A stretch of DNA of 64,000 bases from Curvularia clavata (lineage: Eukaryota). Below the pieces are notes generated by a model. The model had not been told where the DNA came from and did not search any database. It was given only the letters and a program-made list of their open reading frames with translations. A program made the translations under genes and the position numbers. Shown piece after piece: positions 9,791 through 27,465 of the stretch. Position 1 is the stretch's first letter; each line of letters opens with the position of its first letter. The stretch is from positions 2,232,001 through 2,296,000 of the forward strand of contig CP089280.1 in assembly GCA_023920165.1 (NCBI GenBank). The letters run 5' to 3'.

Positions 9791-11560
9791 ATGACCACCG
9801 GAACCCCGCTGCCTGCTTTCGAGCACGAACCACTTCCCGAACACACCTCACACTTCCGACTCCTGCACATAATCCGTGGCGAATACGGGCAGCACGTCGA
9901 GTGTGAGATCTCGGCTTGGCCTATTGATAACGCACCGCCATACTTTGCGATATCATATACCTGGGGCGATCCGGCCGACACGGCTGAGATCACTGTCAAC
10001 GGAAGGCCTTTAGTCGTGCGACGCAACTGCGAATATGTTCTCCAGCAAGCTTTTGCAACCAAGTCAAGTAAATATTTCTGGATCGACGCCATCTGTATTG
10101 CACAGACGACAGAAGAAAAGAATCATCAGGTCGGGATCATGGGCCAAATCTATTCGAGAGCGTATCACGTTCTGGCATGTGTTGGACCCCACCACAACGA
10201 TAGCGAGTTCCTTCCAGAGGCTATCAAAGCACATTGTTCATTGATCAGAAAGATTCGCCACCGGCAGATGCCGTGGGATGAGACGTGGGAAAATCCGATT
10301 AATAGAAGCTGGAGACTACAGATTCGTTGCATTTTCCGCATTGAAACCGAGACACGTCGAAGGATCTTCCAGTCATTGTGTTCATTTATGAGGAGAACTT
10401 ACTTTCGACGTCTGTGGATAATTCAAGAGCTGCATTTAGCACGAAGTGTGTCATATTGCTTTGGGACAGCTGTAGAGGCGGCCGGAGACCTTCTTGCCCT
10501 GTACCAGCTTCTAATCATTTGGGCAGACGATGACCCTTTTCTTTGGTCCTGGCCGGTACGGTCACTTGCAACACTTGCCCGATCCACACTAGCACGTTCT
10601 CGAGCAATAATTTCACTGGCAATGGAACCAACATTTTCAGACATCTACCCTCTGTCTTTCCGCTTGAAGTTCGCCTGCACAACAAGAAAACAAAAAGTCG
10701 AGGATATACTGCTGGATCCCAATCTGCAGTGCGGTGATCCCCGAGATCGTTTGTTTGGTGTTTTGTCTGTTGTTCATCAGGAACATCGAGATGTCCCCAA
10801 GCCAGATTATACGAAGGACCTTTTCGAGGTTGCACTGGACGCTCTAAAGCTTATTTACCAAACGCATCGGATCAGAAATGACCGTTTCTGTGCAAAAAGG
10901 TTGTGCCATAGCTTCCATATCACTGGAGAAGAGGCATCTCTTCGTCGCGCCCTCAATTTGCGCTCTGGTAGACCAGCAAGAAGTGCCATATCAAAGAATA
11001 GTGACGCCACTCATATTAAAGAAAAAGTGGCCCCATACATATGGGGGGCTACTCCAATATATCGGACTAGGGAAGACCCGATGCCGTCTGGGCTGTCATA
11101 TGATGGCTTTTGGAAAATGGACGTGTCAGTGCAAGAGCAACAAGAGTACTGCATCCTGAAGTTCAAGAATGGTCCGGCCACGACATCGACATTGGCACCT
11201 CTTGGTACGAGGCATGGTGACGTGTGGTTATTCAATGGTGCAGGAAACGCAAAAGGAAGCCCGTCTATAGGCTTGATAGTCAGGCCATCAGAAAGCGGCA
11301 GATACGAGTTGATAGGGCCGACATATCCCGTCAGAATTGACGAAGAATTGCCACCATTCTACACTCTTGATAGCTTCACCGGTTTCTGGTACCCAGAGGA
11401 TCTTCTACTTTTCGGATGGACTCTGGGAGAGCTTGAGTTGCATGAGACTACGCAAGGTCAAATGATTAAGTTTGTCAATCAGCGGATTTGTGCATGGGAA
11501 GGTTCTTCATACTTTGAAAAGCAGGCTAGAATCCGGTACCCCCTTTTAAAGGTTGATTAG
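9791..11560 (+). CDS. HET-domain (heterokaryon incompatibility, HET-6-like) protein
   Basis: FRLLHI, YFAISYTWG, FWIDAICIAQ, EKNHQVGIMGQIYSRA, YFRRLWIIQEL, CGDPRDRLFG. Probable start ATG 9791 (MTTGTP). Confidence 0.88.
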   Translation: MTTGTPLPAFEHEPLPEHTSHFRLLHIIRGEYGQHVECEISAWPIDNAPPYFAISYTWGDPADTAEITVNGRPLVVRRNCEYVLQQAFATKSSKYFWIDAICIAQTTEEKNHQVGIMGQIYSRAYHVLACVGPHHNDSEFLPEAIKAHCSLIRKIRHRQMPWDETWENPINRSWRLQIRCIFRIETETRRRIFQSLCSFMRRTYFRRLWIIQELHLARSVSYCFGTAVEAAGDLLALYQLLIIWADDDPFLWSWPVRSLATLARSTLARSRAIISLAMEPTFSDIYPLSFRLKFACTTRKQKVEDILLDPNLQCGDPRDRLFGVLSVVHQEHRDVPKPDYTKDLFEVALDALKLIYQTHRIRNDRFCAKRLCHSFHITGEEASLRRALNLRSGRPARSAISKNSDATHIKEKVAPYIWGATPIYRTREDPMPSGLSYDGFWKMDVSVQEQQEYCILKFKNGPATTSTLAPLGTRHGDVWLFNGAGNAKGSPSIGLIVRPSESGRYELIGPTYPVRIDEELPPFYTLDSFTGFWYPEDLLLFGWTLGELELHETTQGQMIKFVNQRICAWEGSSYFEKQARIRYPLLKVD

Positions 11561-16120: not shown

Positions 16121-17285
16121 AGGAGTAAAGGCTGGTCCGAAGTCATTCATCATTGTTGGTATACCCCGAACACTTGATCTGCTTGTGTTTTTTTTTCTGT
16201 CCTTGACCGGCGTTAACTTCGAGACCTCGGACACCTCATGTGGGACGATTTTGGGATTTAATTGGGGGTTTTTGGAGGGTACGGTTTTGGTACCCTTTTC
16301 TTTTCTTCGTGTCACACTACTATGCCCTTTCATCCCCCTTTCTACTTTCTACTTTCTGATTTCTTTTTTCTTTCTTCGAGCTCACACGGGCTAGAGGAAG
16401 TATTTACTTGGGCGCACTATTGGAAGTATTTTCTTTTTCTTTCTTTCAACTTTACGTGCCCTGAATCCCCCTCATCTTGGAGGATTGTGCAATGTGGTGG
16501 ATTCGGGCCCACATCACCTTTTTTTCTACATGACCATCTGCAATACCCCCCTTCTTATACTTTCAATCACCTGAACATGTCAATCTCACTCGTTTGCTAT
16601 TTCGACCTCGCTTTTTTTCGGTTCTCTTTGCTTTTTTGTCTTCATCAAGGCATGCATGTCCGCGGAGGGAGGTTTCTTATTCGCAATTTGTGGGGACAGA
16701 CTTTGGTCTCTACCACTTGTACCCTTGCCAACATATCTGCCTTTTCCATTTCATGTACGTGTATCAGCATATTCAAGTATAGCTTTACTCTCTCCCTCAT
16801 GTGAGGATGAATTGAGTCAAGCTTGGAAATACACACCGTTGTCCCCTGTTTTCTTCTCTTTGATACTTGCATGAGGTTTTTGTAATGTGAGTAAGCCGCA
16901 GGCAGGAGGGAGGTAGTAGATAGGATTTTGGTTTGCTACATGGTGAGGTTTGTGACTGCCTGGAGTAGTGTGATGAAAGTGATGAGCTTCTCTTTTTCTT
17001 GGATCTCAACATGGGTTTCCCTCCTTTTCCAAGATAAGATTATGATTTTATAAGATCATTCTAATAAACGATTAGATAACTAGGAAAGATGAGACGGTTT
17101 CGACATTCCTTAAGGCCCTGCCGGTAGCACGAGGCATTTGAGGAAACCTTTATTTTGGACACTGACACCAGCAATGGCTCTAGGAAAAACGATAACCATG
17201 ATTCTGCATATATCGACTTTTCATGTTCGCTGCTCTGAACGAGAATCTCAAATTTGACATGAGTATTCCACGCGACAAAATCCCC

Positions 17286-19224
17286 TCACACACTCTCCCT
17301 CAGTACCGCCTTAGCCGGCTTCTCATCCCCCGCTGCCTCCTCCGCCTCCTGCAGCCCCAGACTTTGCGCAATCTGAAACAACCTTGTCTTCTCCTCATGT
17401 GCAGTACCATCTCCAAACACCGCATCCATTTCCTCAAGCGACTTTCCCCTCGTCTCCGGAATCCAAAACCACGTAAACCCAAACGCCACGAGGGCAAAAC
17501 CCGCAAAGAAAATATACGTTCCAAAGCCAATCGACTCTAGCATATCCGGCGTCACAAGCCCAATGATGAAATTGCACATCCAGGTGGAAGAAGTGGTGAG
17601 CGACATGGCTTTGGAGCGGTTACCCAGGTTGTAGATTTCAGAGGGAAGCACCCAGCCGATGGGCGCCCACGAGTACGAGAAGTTGATGTCGTAAATGTAG
17701 ATGAAGGCGATGCCGGTCCAGCCTGCGGCGGGGTGAGAAGCCAAGGAGGAACCATAGCCGCCGATTACGCCACCGACGATGAGCAGAGAGATGCAGGTGC
17801 CGGCTGCACCGCAGAGGAGAAGTGGCCTGCGGCCGACTTTGTCGATGAGGAAGAGGGCGGGGAGCGTAGAGAGCGTGTTTACTATACATGTGGTTAGGAA
17901 GTTTGTCGCTTTTGGCGGATAGGAGGGAGGGCGGCTTACCGATGCCGTAGACGCCTGTTGCCAGGAGCCCCGTTGTCTTGCCTGACAAGCCCAATTGCCC
18001 GAATATCGTGGGAGCGTAGTAAATGATTGCGTTACCTTTATCCGTTAGCCCAAAAAAAAAAGAATGCCTCGTGGTGGAAGTTCAGTGTGCCTTACATCCG
18101 ATGAATTGCTGGAAAAACATAGTACAGCAACCTATCGCTGTGCGCTTAAACGACGGCCATGTGGAAAACAGCGTCGAGTATCCTGCAAGATACAGCGAGA
18201 CGCCGGATTTACCAGGGAACTTCTCTCTGTTGTATGTCTCTTCGAATATGACTTCTGAGCGGATAGCCAGATACTCTTTCTGCACGACTGGGTCATCGGG
18301 CTGCGCGCGCCGCACACGGGCTAGAGCGCGGAGCCCAGCTTCTTCGTTGTCGCGCATGCAGTAGTATCGAGGCGACTCTGGGAAGAAAAGCATACCGATT
18401 CCCAGCACGAGGCCAGGGAATATTTGAATTGCAAAGGGGACGCGCCATGCGGCGTCGCTTTGGCCGGTGCAGCCGTTTGGACCGACGTCGTTGATGGGGT
18501 CGAAGCTGGGCTCTGATGCGGTACCACCAGTGTATGGTATGTTGGGGGCACACCGAGTGCCGCCAATGTACTGGGTGCCGTACTCAAGCCAGTAGGAGAC
18601 GAGAATGCCTAGCGTGATGGAGAGTTGTTGCAGGACGACAAGCGTGCCTCTGATACCAGCGGTGGAGACCTCGCTCATGTACATGGGGACGATCATGGTG
18701 AGCATTCCAACAGCGAAACCTGCGATTGCTCGACCTAAAAACTCATCAGTTAGACTCTTGAATCAATAGTGGCAAGATGGGTTTCCATACCAGCAAAAGC
18801 CATGGGAATACTTATAGCGCCTGCTTGTAGCGCAGACCCAATGGTGAAAATCACAACGGCGATTATGATCGAACCCTTGCGGCCAAAGCGATCTGCAACG
18901 GGACCATTGACGAGGGACCCGAACCAAGCAGCGAGCAGGAGAGTCGAGACAAACCAGCCTTTGAACGAGCTGTCGAGGTAGATGCGAGGGAAGGCTGCGG
19001 CGAAGGACTCCATGGTTAGGACGCCAGAGATTACGCCTTGGTCGTAGCCGAAGAGGAAGCCACCCAAAGAAGCGAACTACAGAGGGTCAGTCGTAGAAGG
19101 GTGAATTGATCCAGAGAATATTTACAGCTGAGAGGCCAAGGAGGTATGGGTTCTGTCGCAGTTCCTTGTACACACTGATCTTCTGGGCAGGCCCAGGGCC
19201 GTCGACAAATGCTGGGTCAGACAT
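17286..19224 (-). CDS. MFS sugar porter (monosaccharide/polyol:H+ symporter family)
   Basis: GGFLFGYDQG, DRFGRK, VPMYMSE..RG..QQL, PESPR, QQFIG, IDKVGRRPL, SWAPIGWVLPSEIY, PETRGKSLEEMD; four short introns. Confidence 0.93.
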
Positions 19225-19310
19225 ATTGGCCGGAGTCTCAAAGATGTGCCAAATTGACCTGCTTGAATGAATCCTGAAAACGAGGACAGACAAAGCATCG
19301 CGATGTCGGA

Positions 19311-19320
19311 TTTTATATAT
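19311..19320 (-). promoter_or_regulatory. TATA box of the sugar porter gene
   Basis: ATATATAAAA on the minus strand, ~90 bp upstream of ATG 19224. Confidence 0.55.
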
Positions 19321-19372
19321 GCTTACAGATCACTCAACATCAGGCCTTGCAACACCACGATGCACACGACCT

Positions 19373-19389
19373 CGGAGCACAGTCGTCCG
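19373..19389. promoter_or_regulatory. Gal4-type UAS (CGG-N11-CCG), site 1
   Basis: CGGAGCACAGTCGTCCG; close to the Gal4 17-mer consensus; in the porter/kinase divergent promoter. Confidence 0.75.
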
Positions 19390-19518
19390 ACCCCACAATA
19401 CCGTCAAACCTGCAGCCATGGAGACAAAATACTATGCAAGTTGTCCCAATTTTTTCCCCGCATGCACAACATTTCCTGATTCATGCTATAAAACTGGGGA
19501 TCGAACATGACTTGTGCA

Positions 19519-19535
19519 CGGACTACAGTGCTCCG
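19519..19535. promoter_or_regulatory. Gal4-type UAS (CGG-N11-CCG), site 2
   Basis: CGGACTACAGTGCTCCG; reverse complement CGGAGCACTGTAGTCCG is 15/17 identical to site 1. Confidence 0.75.
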
Positions 19536-19698
19536 AAACCCCCCCACAGGGCACGCTTCTTGATGATGAGAGAGCAGCTTGGCATTCGTAGTCCTACTAT
19601 TATGGCCGAGTCGTTGCAAAACATTGAGCTTGACCATATCTTCTCATAACTTTCCATCATCTTACTACTCATTTTGCTATTCCCCTCTCAGTGGCGAG

Positions 19699-20508
19699 AT
19701 GACGAACGACACGCGTGTGGATAAGCTTCCTGCCGCTATCCTCGATTTAGTCAAGCGCTCGGAAAAGCTGCTTGCTCGCCAGGCGGCCGACCCTAGTCGC
19801 CGCATGCTTGTTGCGCTTGCGGGTGTGCCTGGTGCGGGCAAGTCGACTGTTTCCGATGCGCTCTTGATAGAGTTGGCAGCACGAGGCATCAGAGATGTTG
19901 CGGTAGTGCCAATGGTAAGATGCCGTTGCAGCGACAGCAACAAGGTTCTGACGGGATCAGGACGGTTTCCATTACACCCGTGAAGTGTTGTCGACGTTTG
20001 AGGATGCGGAGTTGGCGTTCAAGAGACGCGGAGCCCCATTTACTTTTGATGCGGAAGGGTGTGTTAGGCTTGTCAAATTGCTCAAGTCTACGCCTGTTAC
20101 TGTCGAGGGTGAGGAGGATTTGTGTGTAACTGCACCGAGCTTTGATCATGCGGCAAAGGATCCGGTGCAGGATGGGATTCGCATCTCTTCTCGTACACGG
20201 CTCATCATCATCGAGGGTAATTATACGTTATTGAGACAGAAACCATGGGATCAAATCGCAGAGATCTGTGATGAGAGGTCTGTAATTGCTGTCTATCCAT
20301 TAACGCCGCGTCCGGACTGACAGTGTATAGATGGTTTGTGGATGCGCCTGTAGATGTCGTCCGTGATCGTCTAGCACAGCGACATCTTGCTGCTAGAATT
20401 GAGACCTCGAAAGCGGCTGCCGTTGCCAGAGCTGAAGAGAACGATATCCCCAACGGCGAGCTGATACGATCATTACTCATCCAGCCTGACGTCGTCATCG
20501 AGAATTGA
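19699..20508 (+). CDS. P-loop kinase, phosphoribulokinase/uridine kinase superfamily, Yfh7/YggC/FrcK-like
   Basis: Walker A GVPGAGKST; PM|DGFHY (intron 19915-19960); RRGAPFTFD; APSFDHAAKDP; IIIEGNY; R|WFVD (intron 20278-20330); RAEENDIPNG. Confidence 0.88.
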
Positions 20509-20554
20509 TGCAATATCAGAGCATACAATGGAGGCTGAGAGAACTCTTGACGTT

Positions 20555-22687
20555 CTAGAAATTTGTCGTGGACAAGTCCCAGTCGAAAGAGTTGAACAGT
20601 TCATTGGACTCGACGGACCATGGGAAAGCACTCAAAGCATCCTTATCCAGCTCGAAGTTTTGAAATGTAGAGGAATTGAGATCCTCGGTAGACACGACTT
20701 GGTCTAGGATGGCTACACATCGTGCTGAGAGGGAGTCCTTGACGAGGTGTTCGCGAAATGTAGTCCTGGCTAATCGTACGTCCTCAAGCCAGGTGGGCAT
20801 TTCCTGGGCGGAGGGAAAGCTGATTATGCAAAGCGTGATGACTAGAGCGGAATGAAAGAGGAAGTATCTATAAAAATTCGTCAGCTACCAGGGCTTTGGT
20901 GACCGAGAGATGCTTTATACTTACGTTGCGTACCAGCCTTCTAATCTGCTTGGCTCACTCGTGGTGTACTGATGGATTGAGGTAACAGTAGAATGTGCCG
21001 CCTCCAAACAAATCCGCTTACATTCTTCCTGCGCCGACTGCGTAGCCTCATCTGGGATTTGACCCCGTTCGGCAATTGCGCGGCGAAGCAGAATCTGTCG
21101 GAAGATGATAATCTTGAGGTTCCAAAACCTCCACCACAGGCGCGACCGCGCGAAGATGTACCACCGGGCTGACATGTATGGCGGTTGAGTCAACTGAAAG
21201 TACAGGGGTACGGTGTGTGTCCATGCGTCCATGGTAGTGTTGAAGGAGAGGGCTGCTTCAGCGGACAAGCCAGGCTCAGCCAGTAATCTGTTGGAGATGT
21301 GGTTAGTGCTCAAATGAAAGCTACTTTGCTCTCGAAGTGAGGAGTAGATTGTTGGAGTATTAAGTTCGATAGGTAGGTGCGTGGTTTGTGGTGTGAGTGC
21401 CTGGTTCTGGTTAGCTATATGCTAATCATCGTTGCACCGTACAAGTCGCCTACCTCATCATTGATGTTGAGGACAGAATGCACATTCATAGAGTTTTGAT
21501 CAGGCAACATGATTGCTCGGCCAAAAGTCGTAGATGCTCCGCTGTCGAAAATGTACAGCCCCCACCAGATTCTGCGTCTTGCCTCACGTTCGATCAGGCT
21601 GATATTCCAGTGCGGAAGCTCTCTATGAAGGGCTAAGCTCAGCGCCGTGCGCACCGCAAGACCTAGCAGATTCCATCCCGTGTTTGGGCTGTTGCGCTTC
21701 TGGCTAAGATTACTCAGCAATACCAGTGCTTGGACAGACGACAGGCTGGCGGCTTCAAATACGGACTGGTCTTGGCCGATGGCGAGGGCTCGACGATAGA
21801 GGTAGTCTTCAAGGCCAATCTGATCGTTGTTTGTCGTCCATGCGCCGAGAGCTATGATTGCGTGGTACAACATGTCCCAGGATTTCTTGGGCGGCCGTGG
21901 AACTACTTCATAGTACTGTGCGCGAAAAGTTGCCTCATGAACGAAGGGGTAGACAACGTGAAAATTGAGAAAGTAGGCATCGATCAGGCTGGCTGAAAGC
22001 TGTTTGGCGAGAGCAGCATGTGACACGTGCGACGAGGCGAGAACTTTTTTGAAAGCCGAAGAAGGCGTCGGGACACGTTGCTGAGGTGGTGCTCCAGTCT
22101 GATGCAAGAATCCAGCCCAATCGAGCAAGCAACGCAGAAATACTACACCAGAGGTTGAGCCTGACGATATTTTAGTAACACGTTTGTTATGTCGTCAAGA
22201 GGAGCTGACCTAGGTACCCTACCCCTGTAGGCTCAACGGATAGGGCGGCCATGCCATCAGTCAATCCGTCTACATTGACCTCCTCTTCTTGCCAGTTGAA
22301 TCCATCGACGTTGTTTGGTACCGCTTCCGGAAGGGGAGGTTCATTGGAGCTAGAGGTAGTACTGCCCTGAGGGCTCAGGGCTGTCTCTGGCGTTCGTGGC
22401 TTAATTACAGGCGGGGTTGGGACAGCGACATTAGGAGAAGAAAGGATTTCTTCAATGTCAACACCGGGAACCAACTGGCCAACCAGTGCTTCCAGACATT
22501 GCAGCCTTTTCTCTACGCTGGTGAGGTAGGCCCTGGTCAGTGGCGATCTGATGATCTTGCCGCTGTAATGGCACTGTGCACCGCTGTGTGCGCAAGCAGC
22601 ACAGAAAGGCGTCTCTTTTGAGCACTTGAGCTTCTTTGCGCGACAACGATCGCATGATAGGGCATCCTTTGGCCTTCGGTGCTCCAT
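20555..22687 (-). CDS. Gal4/Lac9/GalX-like Zn(II)2Cys6 transcription factor
   Basis: [28 protein letters not shown] followed by [23 protein letters not shown] (Gal4: [23 protein letters not shown]); fungal TF middle-homology region ([26 protein letters not shown]); acidic/aromatic tail; three introns. Confidence 0.9.
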
Positions 22688-24350
22688 GCATGAGACGGGT
22701 TAGTGTGGCAGAGGTGGGGACAGATGGGGTTGCAGGAGTATGGGAGAACTAGACGCAAGACGTTGCTGATCTCTGCCGCAATCGGACCGACACAGCCGCT
22801 ACCTCATCCGCCTTAGAGAACTTTAGTAATAGCTACATGGAGAAAGCGAATCTATCAACACAGCAGTCGTTCTGAATGGGAAGAAGCTGTCAACTGACAA
22901 AAAAAAAAGAAAATTTGAGGCTACAACCAGCCAAGCATAGTCAAGTCTAGAGGCGCTTGACCGCATTCGGTATTGCAGACCAGGAACATTTTTTACACAT
23001 CAGGATCAGGACTAAGAATATGATGGTACCCATGTCAATTTCGAAGCCCAATATTTCTCGCCATACATTGACTGGTCTCCAAAGTCAAGTGTGTGTGCTA
23101 AACACTTGAACATTGGCTGTCACAGCGTCGACGAAGTAGCTGCCATGACAGATGTTATCAAGTGCTCATTTGACGATCTAGTCCGCTTGGATTCTGCCAG
23201 TGATATTGCCATTTCCAAAACCGTGGATTACAGAACTATACCCAGCCAATTGAAGTCGACGCTTAGAGCATGTGCAACTCTTGAGCTTGAGGCACTGGAA
23301 TCGCCTGTCCCTAGCATAGAATGGGTCTTCAACAGATTACTAAGAAACTCAAATTCAGGAAGCACAGCTCCTTACCAGCCCCTATTTCGCAACGAGTTCT
23401 TCGCCGCTATTTGAGACTACACTTCAGGTTGAGGGGAGGGGCAACATTACTTGTTTCTGGATATCTCAATACTACCTTGTCCAATTCTGATGGACTTCTG
23501 ATGGCTTGAGTGCACTATACGTGAGACGAGAAAATCCAAAGCAATTCCCAGCAGCACCAGCATGCCTGGTGTTGGTTATGTTTGGCCGTCCGCATCGCAC
23601 TTACCCGACTGGGCACCAGTTGCTGCATTCGCACTAGAAATGTCACGACAGTGCATATCATTATTTACGTATTCCTGGCCATGGTGTTGCACCTCGGCCG
23701 ATCGCCGATTCGAGCCTCTCATTTGCCATGCATCCATCCCCCTACTAGGCCTCTACCACGGTTATATGTCGTCGTCCCTCTCCTCGACCATCACCTGACT
23801 GCCAAGGCCATCTCAGCTGACATGGCTCTGGTACACGGCAGCCGGGTTGCATGTCTTGTTGCTCAGCGACTCCACGGACGCCGCACGAGCACGTCACATG
23901 GCCTCCACTCTCTCACTCTCTCCAGCAACCCCCGGCGGTGAGGCATGCAGCGACTCGACCCGCACCGCCACCAGCCACTCGTCTCGCCATCACCAACGGG
24001 CTCGTCGCGCAGAATCCCCCAGGATTGGCGGAGACGGGGCGCTATGCCAGACTCGCTCGCCCAAGCCCCGCGCTCGTGACTGGGGCGCCCGGCCACGTCC
24101 CAGAAAAGCGGCACGCCAGGTCAAAGTCAGCGACGCGCAATTGATAGAGTCAGCATTGCGCGCAACAAAGAGCATTTAGACAATTCACCTTCCCAGAGCC
24201 GTTACCAATACCCCACACGGCGAGCGCGTGCACATGCAGGTACCCAGCTAGAGCCATTGACGCGCGACCACCCCAGGCCCTTATCTGACCCAGCGCCGGC
24301 CACGTCTCTCAGCCGTCGCAAGCCGACCCCAGGTGTAGTCCACCACCACC

Positions 24351-27300
24351 ATGTCCTCCGCCGGCCCCAACCAGTCTCCACCAGCGCGTTCACAGGCTTC
24401 CGCGCAGCATACGCGCACCTACCAGGCCTGCATTCCCTGTCGCCGCCGCAAAGTGCGATGCGGTATGTCTGACCTGCTGTCCTGTTGCTTATCTACAACT
24501 ACTAACACTTCCGTCTTTCCTAGATCTTGGCCCCGTCGACAATCCCCACGACCCGCCCTGTGTGCGATGCAGGAGGGAGAGCAAGGAGTGCTTCTTCTCG
24601 GCCACCCGTCGCAAGAGGAAGGCTGACGACGGCGACGAGTACGACGAGGCCGACGACTATGAGATCCGCAATGGGAGGAAGCGCCAGCGCTCCGCCGGCC
24701 AGCAGGAACCCCTCACCATCACCACCGCAAACTCCGCAGCCTACATTTCCCAGCCCTTGACCCCCGGCGGCTCTGTTGGACGATACGAGCCTCTGCGACG
24801 ACCCAACACGTCCACCGGTCAGCCGTCTCAGCAGAACGACGAGGAAGACCAGAAGGTGAACAATGAGACGCTCGCAACATTGCAGGCCGGCGAGGTCTAC
24901 AGCGGGCATGACGCCCTCAACCTGCTCTTCGAGGCTGCTGGTATGAATGCCCACCACCGCACCGAAAGCAGTTCGAGCCTCCAGCGCCCCACCCTAGGCA
25001 GCACCCCAGGCTCCCAGACCAACTTTGCTAGCCCTCACGCCAACCCACATCACGTCCGGAGCAATTCGCATGCCACCGTCGAGCCCTCTGTAGATCCTGC
25101 CATCCAGCAGCCCGTACTGCCAGAACCGCCCAACGAAGCTGCTTTCGCCGACGCCGTGCGTGCCTGGTCAAAGTTCCGTTTTGTTCGCGCCGGGTGGTTC
25201 ACAGCAAAGGAAGCCATCGCCTACATTGACTACTTCTATGCCTTTCTGTCTCCCCTGACTCCAATCGTCGTGCCAGATTACCGCGATCATGCCTTCCATG
25301 CAAAGCTGCTCAAGGAAGAGCCCATGCTGGTCATCACCCTCCTCACCATCTCCGCCAGGTATTTCCAGCCAAACGGATCCAACGGCGCGGGTGCCACCTC
25401 GAGATCCTACCTTATCCATGAAAAGATGTGGAAGTATCTGCAGGGCATGATAGATCGCATGATTTTTGGCCAGGAGCAGTTTGGCGGCGGCTTCTGTGGC
25501 GCGGGACAACAGCCTGGATCCGACGTGAACCCTCTGTCACGCAAGGGTCTTCGAACACTAGGTACTGTCGAGAGTTTGATGTTACTCACAGAATGGCATC
25601 CCCGTGCCTTGCATTTCCCACCTGGCGATGACGACGATGAGCTTGTGCTCCCCGACGATCCGTACGAGACGGGGCCTAAAGCTGACATGTACAAAGGCGT
25701 GGGCGACAAGCGCATCGACAGTTGGCTCGAGCCGTGCTGGCGTAGCGACCGCATGTGCTGGATGTTGCTCGGAAATGCCATGACACTTGCTTTCGAAATT
25801 GGCGTCTTTGACGAAACCAATGAGACAGAGTTCGAGGAAGCCAACCAGCATCTTTCGCACGCCACCGTCAAGGCCTACTATCGCCGAAAGAACCATTTGC
25901 GAGATCTCCTTATCATATATGTCACCCAGACTAGTGGCAGATTGGGCCTGACGTCCATGCTTCCCAAGATTGATCGTGATGAGAGCTTGAGCGGCGCGCC
26001 TTCACCCCTGGACCTATACAAGGAACGCATCAGTCGGATCAAAGCCCCTCCAGCTCAGTTTGGCATGCGCTCCGATGGACAGCGCCTTCCTCTTGAGTCG
26101 ATCGCTACCCAGGAACGCCACGCAATCCAAGATCTGGTGCTTGATTTTTGGCAGCGCATCGCCAAGATCATGGAGATGGGTAACCTGAAGTTGTTCTCCA
26201 ATCGGCGCAAGACGCGTGAATTGCTCAAGTCGGGAAAATATGAGGAGATGCTCAAGTTCTTCCAAGGCCCTCTGGCGGAGTGGAGAAAATGCTTTGACCG
26301 CGCACCCCAAGGTATGTGCTGTGACATATAGTGCGTCTGTTGCCTTGTGATTCTGACTTTGACAGTACCCACCCAACTTCGCCATGTTCTCATCATCGAG
26401 TTTGAATACACCCGCGTCTACCTCAACTCCCTAGCTCTCCAGGCTGTCGTAGAACGTTGTACTCACAACACACCACTTCAGACACACGCCCAACCCAACG
26501 GTGTCAACGGACGGGCTACTAATGGCAACGAGGACGGTGGGGCAATACCTTTTAGCACACTCGTCAAGTGGTATGCCAACGACCGCCACTACATTAACGA
26601 GGTCATCGATGCGTCACGTAATGTTCTCAAAATCGTCGTGGATGGCCTACATCCAGGTGGCTATCTGCGACATGCGCCTGTGCGGACCTTCTTCCGTATC
26701 GTCAGTGTGGCCATCATTCTACTGAAGACATTTGCCTTGGGTGCAACCGAAGAAGACGTGGCTGTTAGTCTCAGTCTACTCAGCAATTCGGTTGACGCGC
26801 TGCGAACAAGCATCGTGGACGATGTGCATGTTGGTAATCGCTTTGCCGACCTTGTCGAAACACTGACTCACCGAATCCGCTCTCGTTTCGTACGTCTTGC
26901 TGCCAATGGATCCGCTGGAATATCACGTGCGGGTAGCAAGAGTCCTATTCAAGCACCAATGATGCCTCCGCCTTCGGCTCTGAATAATACCAACCATCTC
27001 GCCCCGCCATACATGGGATCTCAGCAAACCGGCCTCTCCGGTACTGGCACGAGCGTTCCTGGTTCGCCCAGCATGGGGCTCGGGACAAGCGGGCGAGTAA
27101 CCCCTCTATGGGGCATCTCTGCAGAACCCTACGACCCAAACTCGAACAGTATATCCATTATGCCACCGCCAGGCAACTACACCAACTTTTCTTCCAACAC
27201 AAACGGCAACAGTAGTAATGGTAACGGTAACGGCAACAACGGCTCCAACTCAGAAGGCACCAACGGCGCGCAATGGGGCCAGTGGGCAGGCAACGGAGCC

Positions 27301-27465
27301 GGCTGGGGTAATGGCCACGACCAAGACTGGCTTGCTCTGCCGCTAGACCCGCTGCTGGACCAGTGGGGTGCGGAAATTAACCAGACGGCCATGGGGCCGG
27401 ATATTGGAGGTATGGATATGTTGGATATCTTGCTCAATATGGGAGGTATGCCTCCGAGTGCCTAG
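24351..27465 (+). CDS. ARO80: Aro80-like Zn(II)2Cys6 transcription factor (aromatic amino-acid catabolism regulator)
   Basis: YQACIPCRRRKVRC|DLGPVDNPHDPPCVRCRRESKEC (intron 24463-24523) matches the distinctive Aro80 zinc cluster; LRTLGTVESLMLLTEWHP; second intron ~26312-26365. Confidence 0.82.

Follow-up and report, generated by a model that had tools for sequence, protein, structure and literature searches.

Gal4 is the textbook example of regulatory rewiring, a story that rests on yeasts. In the GAL1-10 layout, UAS sites lie in a divergent promoter with glucose-repressor boxes nearby, and the 11-bp spacing is set by the Gal4 linker. In Candida albicans, Gal4 binds CGG-N11-CCG (PMC2749448), and TAL1 is listed among its ChIP targets at 2.5-fold (Table S2 of that paper). 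For filamentous fungi, the available part of a review (PMC5468973) names GalX and GalR as the galactose regulators, gives GalX no orthologues outside Aspergillus and lists its binding site as unknown; the same source tabulates SYGGRG as the consensus of CreA.

Here we describe a locus in a window of 64,000 nucleotides from the Pleosporales fungus Curvularia clavata (contig CP089280.1), in which a sugar porter gene and a P-loop kinase gene diverge from a 474-bp region and a gene for a Zn2Cys6 factor converges on the kinase. The features below are given in window coordinates, together with what is kept in L030, a syntenic locus whose gene order is that of the window.

17286..19224, minus strand: sugar porter, MFS Sugar_tr by Pfam, 571 aa, 5 exons
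19225..19698, no strand: divergent intergenic region, the porter/kinase promoter, 474 bp; 226 of 474 bases are the same in L030
19373..19389, no strand: Gal4-type UAS site 1, porter-proximal, CGG-N11-CCG; 16/17 kept in L030
19391..19396, minus strand: CreA-type SYGGRG box adjoining site 1, of putative function; same box at L030:9706
19456..19461, minus strand: CreA-type SYGGRG box between the sites, of putative function; counterpart at L030:9758
19506..19517, plus strand: 12-bp block CATGACTTGTGC abutting site 2; 12/12 identical in L030
19519..19535, no strand: Gal4-type UAS site 2, kinase-proximal, CGG-N11-CCG; 11/17 kept in L030
19542..19547, minus strand: CreA-type SYGGRG box adjoining site 2, of putative function; counterpart at L030:9847
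19699..20510, plus strand: YFH7/FrcK/YggC-type P-loop kinase, 236 aa; exons 19699-19914, 19961-20277 and 20331-20510
20555..22687, minus strand: Zn2Cys6 activator, 657 aa; exons 22687-22210, 22160-21454, 21400-20925 and 20867-20555

The first-pass annotation had read this promoter as holding an inverted pair of near-identical Gal4-type sites, and both 17-mers are found where it placed them (19373-19389 and 19519-19535). It put them about 150 bp from the porter ATG and about 165 bp from the kinase ATG; we measure 148 bp (ATG 19224) and 163 bp (ATG 19699), with the site centers 146 bp apart. Each site has inverted CGG triplets around an 11-bp spacer with, as had been noted, A or T at its center, which are the features of a Gal4-type UAS. 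Site 1 departs from the symmetric Gal4 consensus quoted in the annotation at 2 of 17 positions, in agreement with the count given there. The two sites are 15/17 identical in inverted orientation, again as claimed, and 13/17 in direct orientation, and each is itself near-palindromic (12/17).

The claim that so close a pair is beyond chance is borne out locally: in 20,000 dinucleotide shuffles of the 474-bp region, which was picked post hoc, at least two sites arose in 9 and a pair alike at 15/17 or better in 1. Among the 136 pairs that the window's sites can form, sites 1 and 2 are also the most alike, and the next best reaches 13/17. The bare CGG-N11-CCG pattern is not enriched in the window as a whole, with 17 matches vs 12.7 ± 3.3 in shuffled sequence, a count that was equalled or exceeded in 17 of 100 shuffles.

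Phylogenetic footprinting, which the annotation had proposed as a check, shows that both sites persist in L030, 140 bp apart. All 12 triplet bases are kept and 27 of 34 site bases are identical, vs 199 of 440 (45%) in the intergenic region outside the sites. Site 2 retains its triplets and spacing despite being only 11/17 identical, and the three SYGGRG boxes and the 12-bp block at 19506-19517 are kept as well. Compared with each other, the L030 sites are 12/17 alike in inverted and 13/17 in direct orientation, and this low mutual likeness points to two independent operators rather than to a functional inverted repeat. The claim of an inverted pair thus stands for the window (15/17) and does not extend to the orthologous promoter (12/17). 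The word "inverted" says little, given that each site is near-palindromic and that L030 does not preserve the likeness. Conservation across promoters extends to the CGG triplets, their 11-bp spacing and the site positions, but not to near-identity or inverted symmetry, and as judged from these promoters the inverted symmetry of the pair is incidental.

A single metagenome scan returned 64 loci, 3 of them cluster-type; 12 were examined, and the remaining 52, all short matches to the Walker-A region, were left out. Strain-level contigs, some of them too close to be informative, were not used for footprinting. One cluster-type locus, L036, has a rearranged tandem order of factor, kinase and porter, in which one site precedes the kinase and another the porter (L036:9745 and L036:11070), 1.3 kb apart; in its close relative L039 the kinase site is present (L039:1748). 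The 600 bp upstream of the kinase match contain a site in 4/4 cluster-type loci, which represent two independent lineages, vs 0/6 others, 2 of which are fungal. These comparisons confirm the pair as real, conserved Gal4-type operators that are ordinary as DNA elements, with binding predicted from sequence.

Some further observations concern these promoters. Besides its N11 site, the promoter of the L036 porter contains two N10 look-alikes (~10897 and ~10942). In L036 (L036:7170-13017) and L039, a GalX-like factor is clustered with the same kinase and porter and the Gal4 orthologue is absent from the cluster, an arrangement that suggests a regulator swap. The first six bases of the 12-bp block, CATGAC, recur upstream of the SDR described below, of enolase and of pyruvate kinase, and three times before the porter of a GalX-like cluster (upstream regions L024, L205, L206 and L108); this element could possibly mark a second carbon-related factor.

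The adjacent factor has Zn_clus, Gal4_dimer and Fungal_trans (middle homology region) domains, and its top PDB match is Gal4 (E 2e-19); no other Gal4_dimer match was found in the genome. Over the zinc cluster, linker and dimer helix, 40 of 74 residues are identical to Saccharomyces Gal4. These include R15, K17, K18, K20, K23, P26 and R46-A52, which we take to have DNA-contact roles. In a FastTree phylogeny (87 sequences, 543 columns, an arbitrary distant root, and a sample drawn with a profile of the factor's own family), it groups with A. niger An11g09590 in a clade whose sister is that of yeast Gal4/Lac9 (local support 0.987), and a paralogue on C4 falls with the L036 and L039 factors in a sister family. 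By sequence, then, the factor is the Pezizomycotina orthologue of Gal4/Lac9, apart from its paralogues. Together with the footprint, this neighbor supports the proposal in the first-pass annotation that the divergent promoter carries Gal4-type UAS elements and that the neighboring factor would be their reader. Autoregulation was considered and rejected: the factor's own upstream region holds only an N10 look-alike, which L030 does not preserve.

The linkage of the factor to its neighbors extends to other genomes. In at least 12 named genomes, among them a Sordariomycete, the tags or accessions of factor and kinase are consecutive, and in 13 more the two lie on contigs of equal size, both read by eye; in one species, Paraphoma, the two failed to match. 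A database protein from Achaetomium (P0034) fuses the factor to the porter; it looks like an annotation merge, and it shows factor-porter adjacency in Sordariales. A Pyrenophora protein (P0009) that fuses the factor to a SET domain likewise looks like an annotation merge. Within the window, a second Zn2Cys6-type factor, also present in L030, lies upstream of the Gal4 orthologue (24351-27465, plus strand), and a HET-domain protein of 589 aa is encoded at 9791-11560 (plus strand).

The gene models are supported by contigs of public runs, the types of which were partly guessed: all 3 introns of the factor are skipped in such contigs, as are the 4 introns of the porter in RNA-type contigs, leaving its spliced frame open, and intron 2 of the kinase in one contig, with intron 1 inferred. 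One 5.2-kb contig (run X6, window 17200-22809) spans factor, kinase, promoter and porter, with the factor and porter introns spliced and the kinase introns retained, which weakly hints at read-through antisense to the kinase, or may be no more than a merged assembly.

The kinase has a P-loop fold of the PRK/URK/PanK-like type, and its best PDB matches by both sequence and fold are YFH7 (2ga8) and a putative fructose-transport kinase (3c8u). PRK09270 NCBIfam models match it below their curated bacterial cut-offs. Its exon 2 has 100% identity to a protein labelled Curvularia clavata. The fold search confirmed the family and pointed to no substrate, and bacterial kinase neighborhoods likewise gave no substrate clue: full-length relatives were present in 3 of 68 loci, with uninformative frames. 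For Sinorhizobium meliloti FrcK, the available text of PMC10433430 reports that a fructokinase mutant was not complemented and states that the substrate is not apparent. The C. clavata genome has a second YFH7-type kinase, 45% identical (G000:C3:627235-627705, L104), with no site in 6 kb around this paralogue.

Matches elsewhere in the genome suggest a short target list. The window-site pattern has one other exact match in 32.4 Mb (0.03 expected), located 580 bp upstream of the genome's only transaldolase gene (TAL1). The symmetrized strict consensus has four exact matches genome-wide, namely the two window sites, the transaldolase site and a site 104-155 bp upstream of an SDR gene. This SDR match is the one extra gained from the symmetrized pattern (0.28 expected) and, taken by itself, could turn up at some point in the genome with a probability of roughly 1 in 4. 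Relatives of the SDR are automatically named D-arabinitol 2-dehydrogenase or sorbose reductase, and it is related to mannitol/polyol dehydrogenases. Allowing one mismatch gave no genome-wide enrichment (9 vs 11 in the control), and looser patterns fell below control (8 vs 13; 45/49 vs 116/128). Inspection of 21 looser sites (20 plus L013) found mixed neighbors and no coherent extension of the regulon: a PL4 lyase/MFS pair, GH92, SDRs, an FMO and housekeeping genes, with several sites inside open frames. One looser site, L124 (G000:C6:2646282), resembles site 2 of L030 and is flanked by genes for an MFS protein and a PL4 lyase.

The A. niger counterparts offer a view of the sugar involved. The window porter is the orthologue of An11g09600 and shares its distinctive loop (compared by eye); An11g09600 adjoins the transcription factor gene An11g09590, and beyond it lies a peptidase gene, not a kinase. 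The available part of PMC5968117 describes An11g09600 as a putative pentose transporter. In its supplement, galactose gives levels of 73/114, glucose and fructose about 110, xylose 694/736, arabinose 368-720 and galacturonate 1228/1253. Expression stays high in dXlnR (572/543) and dAraR (652/844). It also rises on cellulose (454/367) and, with maltose, in dAmyR (330/865), and it falls in dRhaR on rhamnose (148/122 vs 355/479), so that part of the pattern, given the dAmyR, cellulose and dRhaR values, may be due to derepression or other regulators. Because of these A. niger data, fructose is disfavored as the substrate.

We lean slightly towards a pathway logic in which a non-galactose sugar or polyol would be fed into the non-oxidative pentose phosphate pathway. 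Sedoheptulose-7-phosphate is a direct substrate of transaldolase and could overflow during pentose growth, and for these reasons our leading, and tentative, guess at the substrate is sedoheptulose or a heptitol, with pentitol/pentulose and tetritol/erythrulose as alternatives. It is a speculative idea, and we would not bet on it, that filamentous ascomycetes keep an uncharacterized Gal4-orthologue regulon that salvages a seven-carbon sugar or polyol, with the YFH7/FrcK-type orphan acting as a heptulose kinase. The assignment of steps that goes with it is equally conjectural: the porter would serve uptake, the SDR heptitol/heptulose redox, and transaldolase would be the sink. If this seven-carbon reading were true, the link between Gal4 and TAL1, common to C. 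albicans, would predate the glycolytic and galactose roles of Gal4, and an orphan kinase family would gain a substrate class.

The best explanation of the locus, and one we consider likely, is a small regulon of the Gal4 orthologue with two independent operators at the porter/kinase promoter. The two 17-mers would be separate operators, each serving a homodimer of the Gal4 orthologue, whose gene lies 1 kb downstream, and each dimer would read two inverted CGG triplets 11 bp apart; among the predicted steps, binding of both 17-mers by this factor is the one of which we are most confident. The operator pair would activate the divergent porter and kinase genes, and the CreA-type boxes beside each site may confer glucose repression. 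The single transaldolase gene is probably another target of the factor, and so, with less certainty, is the polyol-type SDR gene elsewhere, for which the balance tips only a little in favor. The four targets would then provide uptake, polyol/ketose redox, phosphorylation and transaldolase.

Another factor might read the sites in place of the adjacent one, either a CLR-2/ClrB orthologue or the GalX-like paralogue. The genome holds a likely ClrB orthologue, as we take it to be, at G000:C2:557k, and a GalX-like factor with a related linker at G000:C4:739k. The latter belongs to a GalX-like cluster (G000:C4:734000-741000, L108) with an SDR, a zinc polyol dehydrogenase, a porter and an intronless Zn2Cys6 factor; the label "GalX-like" for this C4 paralogue family comes from the cluster content and is putative. 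The CLR-2 motif is itself CGGN11CCG (PMC4620465, in the text available). GalX-like factors also flank the same kinase and porter in L036 and L039, and since these belong to the GalX-like family, more than one factor may read such sites. However, none of the four strict sites lies by a cellulase gene, the promoters of the GalX-like cluster contain only N10 and one-mismatch look-alikes and no CGG-N11-CCG, and it is the adjacent factor whose DNA-binding domain comes closest to that of Gal4 and whose linkage to the targets persists across classes. We thus regard a different reader as unlikely. A structural role for the pair as an inverted repeat (hairpin or cruciform), or its origin as a chance duplication, is extremely improbable. 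A 181-nt stretch does fold as DNA at -25.6 kcal/mol (z -3.3) with the sites paired, but in L030 the arms are complementary at only 12/17 positions even though the triplets remain intact, and this makes a hairpin role unlikely despite the z score; moreover, the L036 sites are 1.3 kb apart, before separate genes.

With a true Gal4 orthologue and near-consensus UAS elements in hand, a yeast-like galactose (Leloir) regulon would be an obvious expectation, yet it is hard to sustain. The galactokinase (GAL1) and GAL7 matches have no CGG-N11-CCG within about 1.5 kb on either side; widening the stretches adds nothing at galactokinase and, at GAL7, a single poor match some 2.5 kb upstream. On galactose, the porter orthologue of A. 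niger does not rise above baseline, and the window kinase is not a GHMP galactokinase, all of which makes this reading very doubtful. We give similarly little credence to a generalist glycolytic regulon like that of C. albicans Gal4 or K. phaffii Cra1, in which the locus would be one target among many. TAL1 is on the C. albicans target list as well and non-Saccharomyces Gal4 factors control glycolysis, but neither of the enolase and pyruvate kinase promoters (~3 kb each) contains the motif (0/2), and none of the 21 inspected looser sites appeared at a glycolytic gene. The small Gal4-orthologue regulon with two operators remains our preferred reading.

This regulon, including transaldolase and the orphan kinase, appears to be undescribed. 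Our search of the open literature, with subscription journals largely outside its coverage, found no study of the factor, the cluster or the regulon, and An11g09590 gave 0 hits there. Its alias NRRL3_09365 (matched by primer ends) is named in the available text of an A. niger overexpression survey only as the presumed regulator of a PKS cluster, and the expression table of that survey, as far as available, has no column for an NRRL3_09365 strain (PMC12368960). Other sources drawn on, likewise in their available parts, are PMC5067116, PMC8709784, PMC6249229, PMC3998117 and PMC2784038. A filamentous-fungal orthologue with a short, specific list of candidate targets offers an outgroup for the first role of Gal4. 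It also gives the orphan kinase family of YFH7 and FrcK, for which structures have been solved, a place between a sugar porter and transaldolase, and a small substrate screen would thus be well aimed. Finally, A. niger, a standard laboratory host, has the orthologous factor and porter (An11g09590/An11g09600), and the response of this porter to pentoses persists in the absence of XlnR or AraR, which bears on the engineering of pentose utilization.

Compared with known systems, the locus is most like the S. cerevisiae Gal4/K. lactis Lac9 GAL1-10 arrangement in having a divergent promoter with CGG-N11-CCG sites, nearby glucose-repressor boxes and an orthologous factor. Unlike that system, its candidate targets are a porter, a P-loop kinase, transaldolase and an SDR, the Leloir genes checked have no sites, and the factor gene is linked to its targets. 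C. albicans Gal4 and K. phaffii Cra1 share the motif and have non-Leloir targets in carbon metabolism, TAL1 being one in C. albicans; in contrast to their broad control of glycolysis, the regulon here looks very small. N. crassa CLR-2/ClrB also binds CGGN11CCG, but it is a different factor with a cellulase regulon. The Aspergillus GalX cluster resembles the locus in that a Zn2Cys6 factor is clustered with a porter and polyol/ketose oxidoreductases, whereas the adjacent factor here falls in a sister family and the genome has a separate GalX-like cluster on C4. For the kinase, S. cerevisiae YFH7, S. meliloti FrcK and the PRK09270 family are the closest matches in sequence and fold, and FrcK, like the window kinase, is tied to sugar/polyol uptake; unlike all three, the window kinase has a proposed regulon context that points to a transaldolase-linked sugar phosphate.
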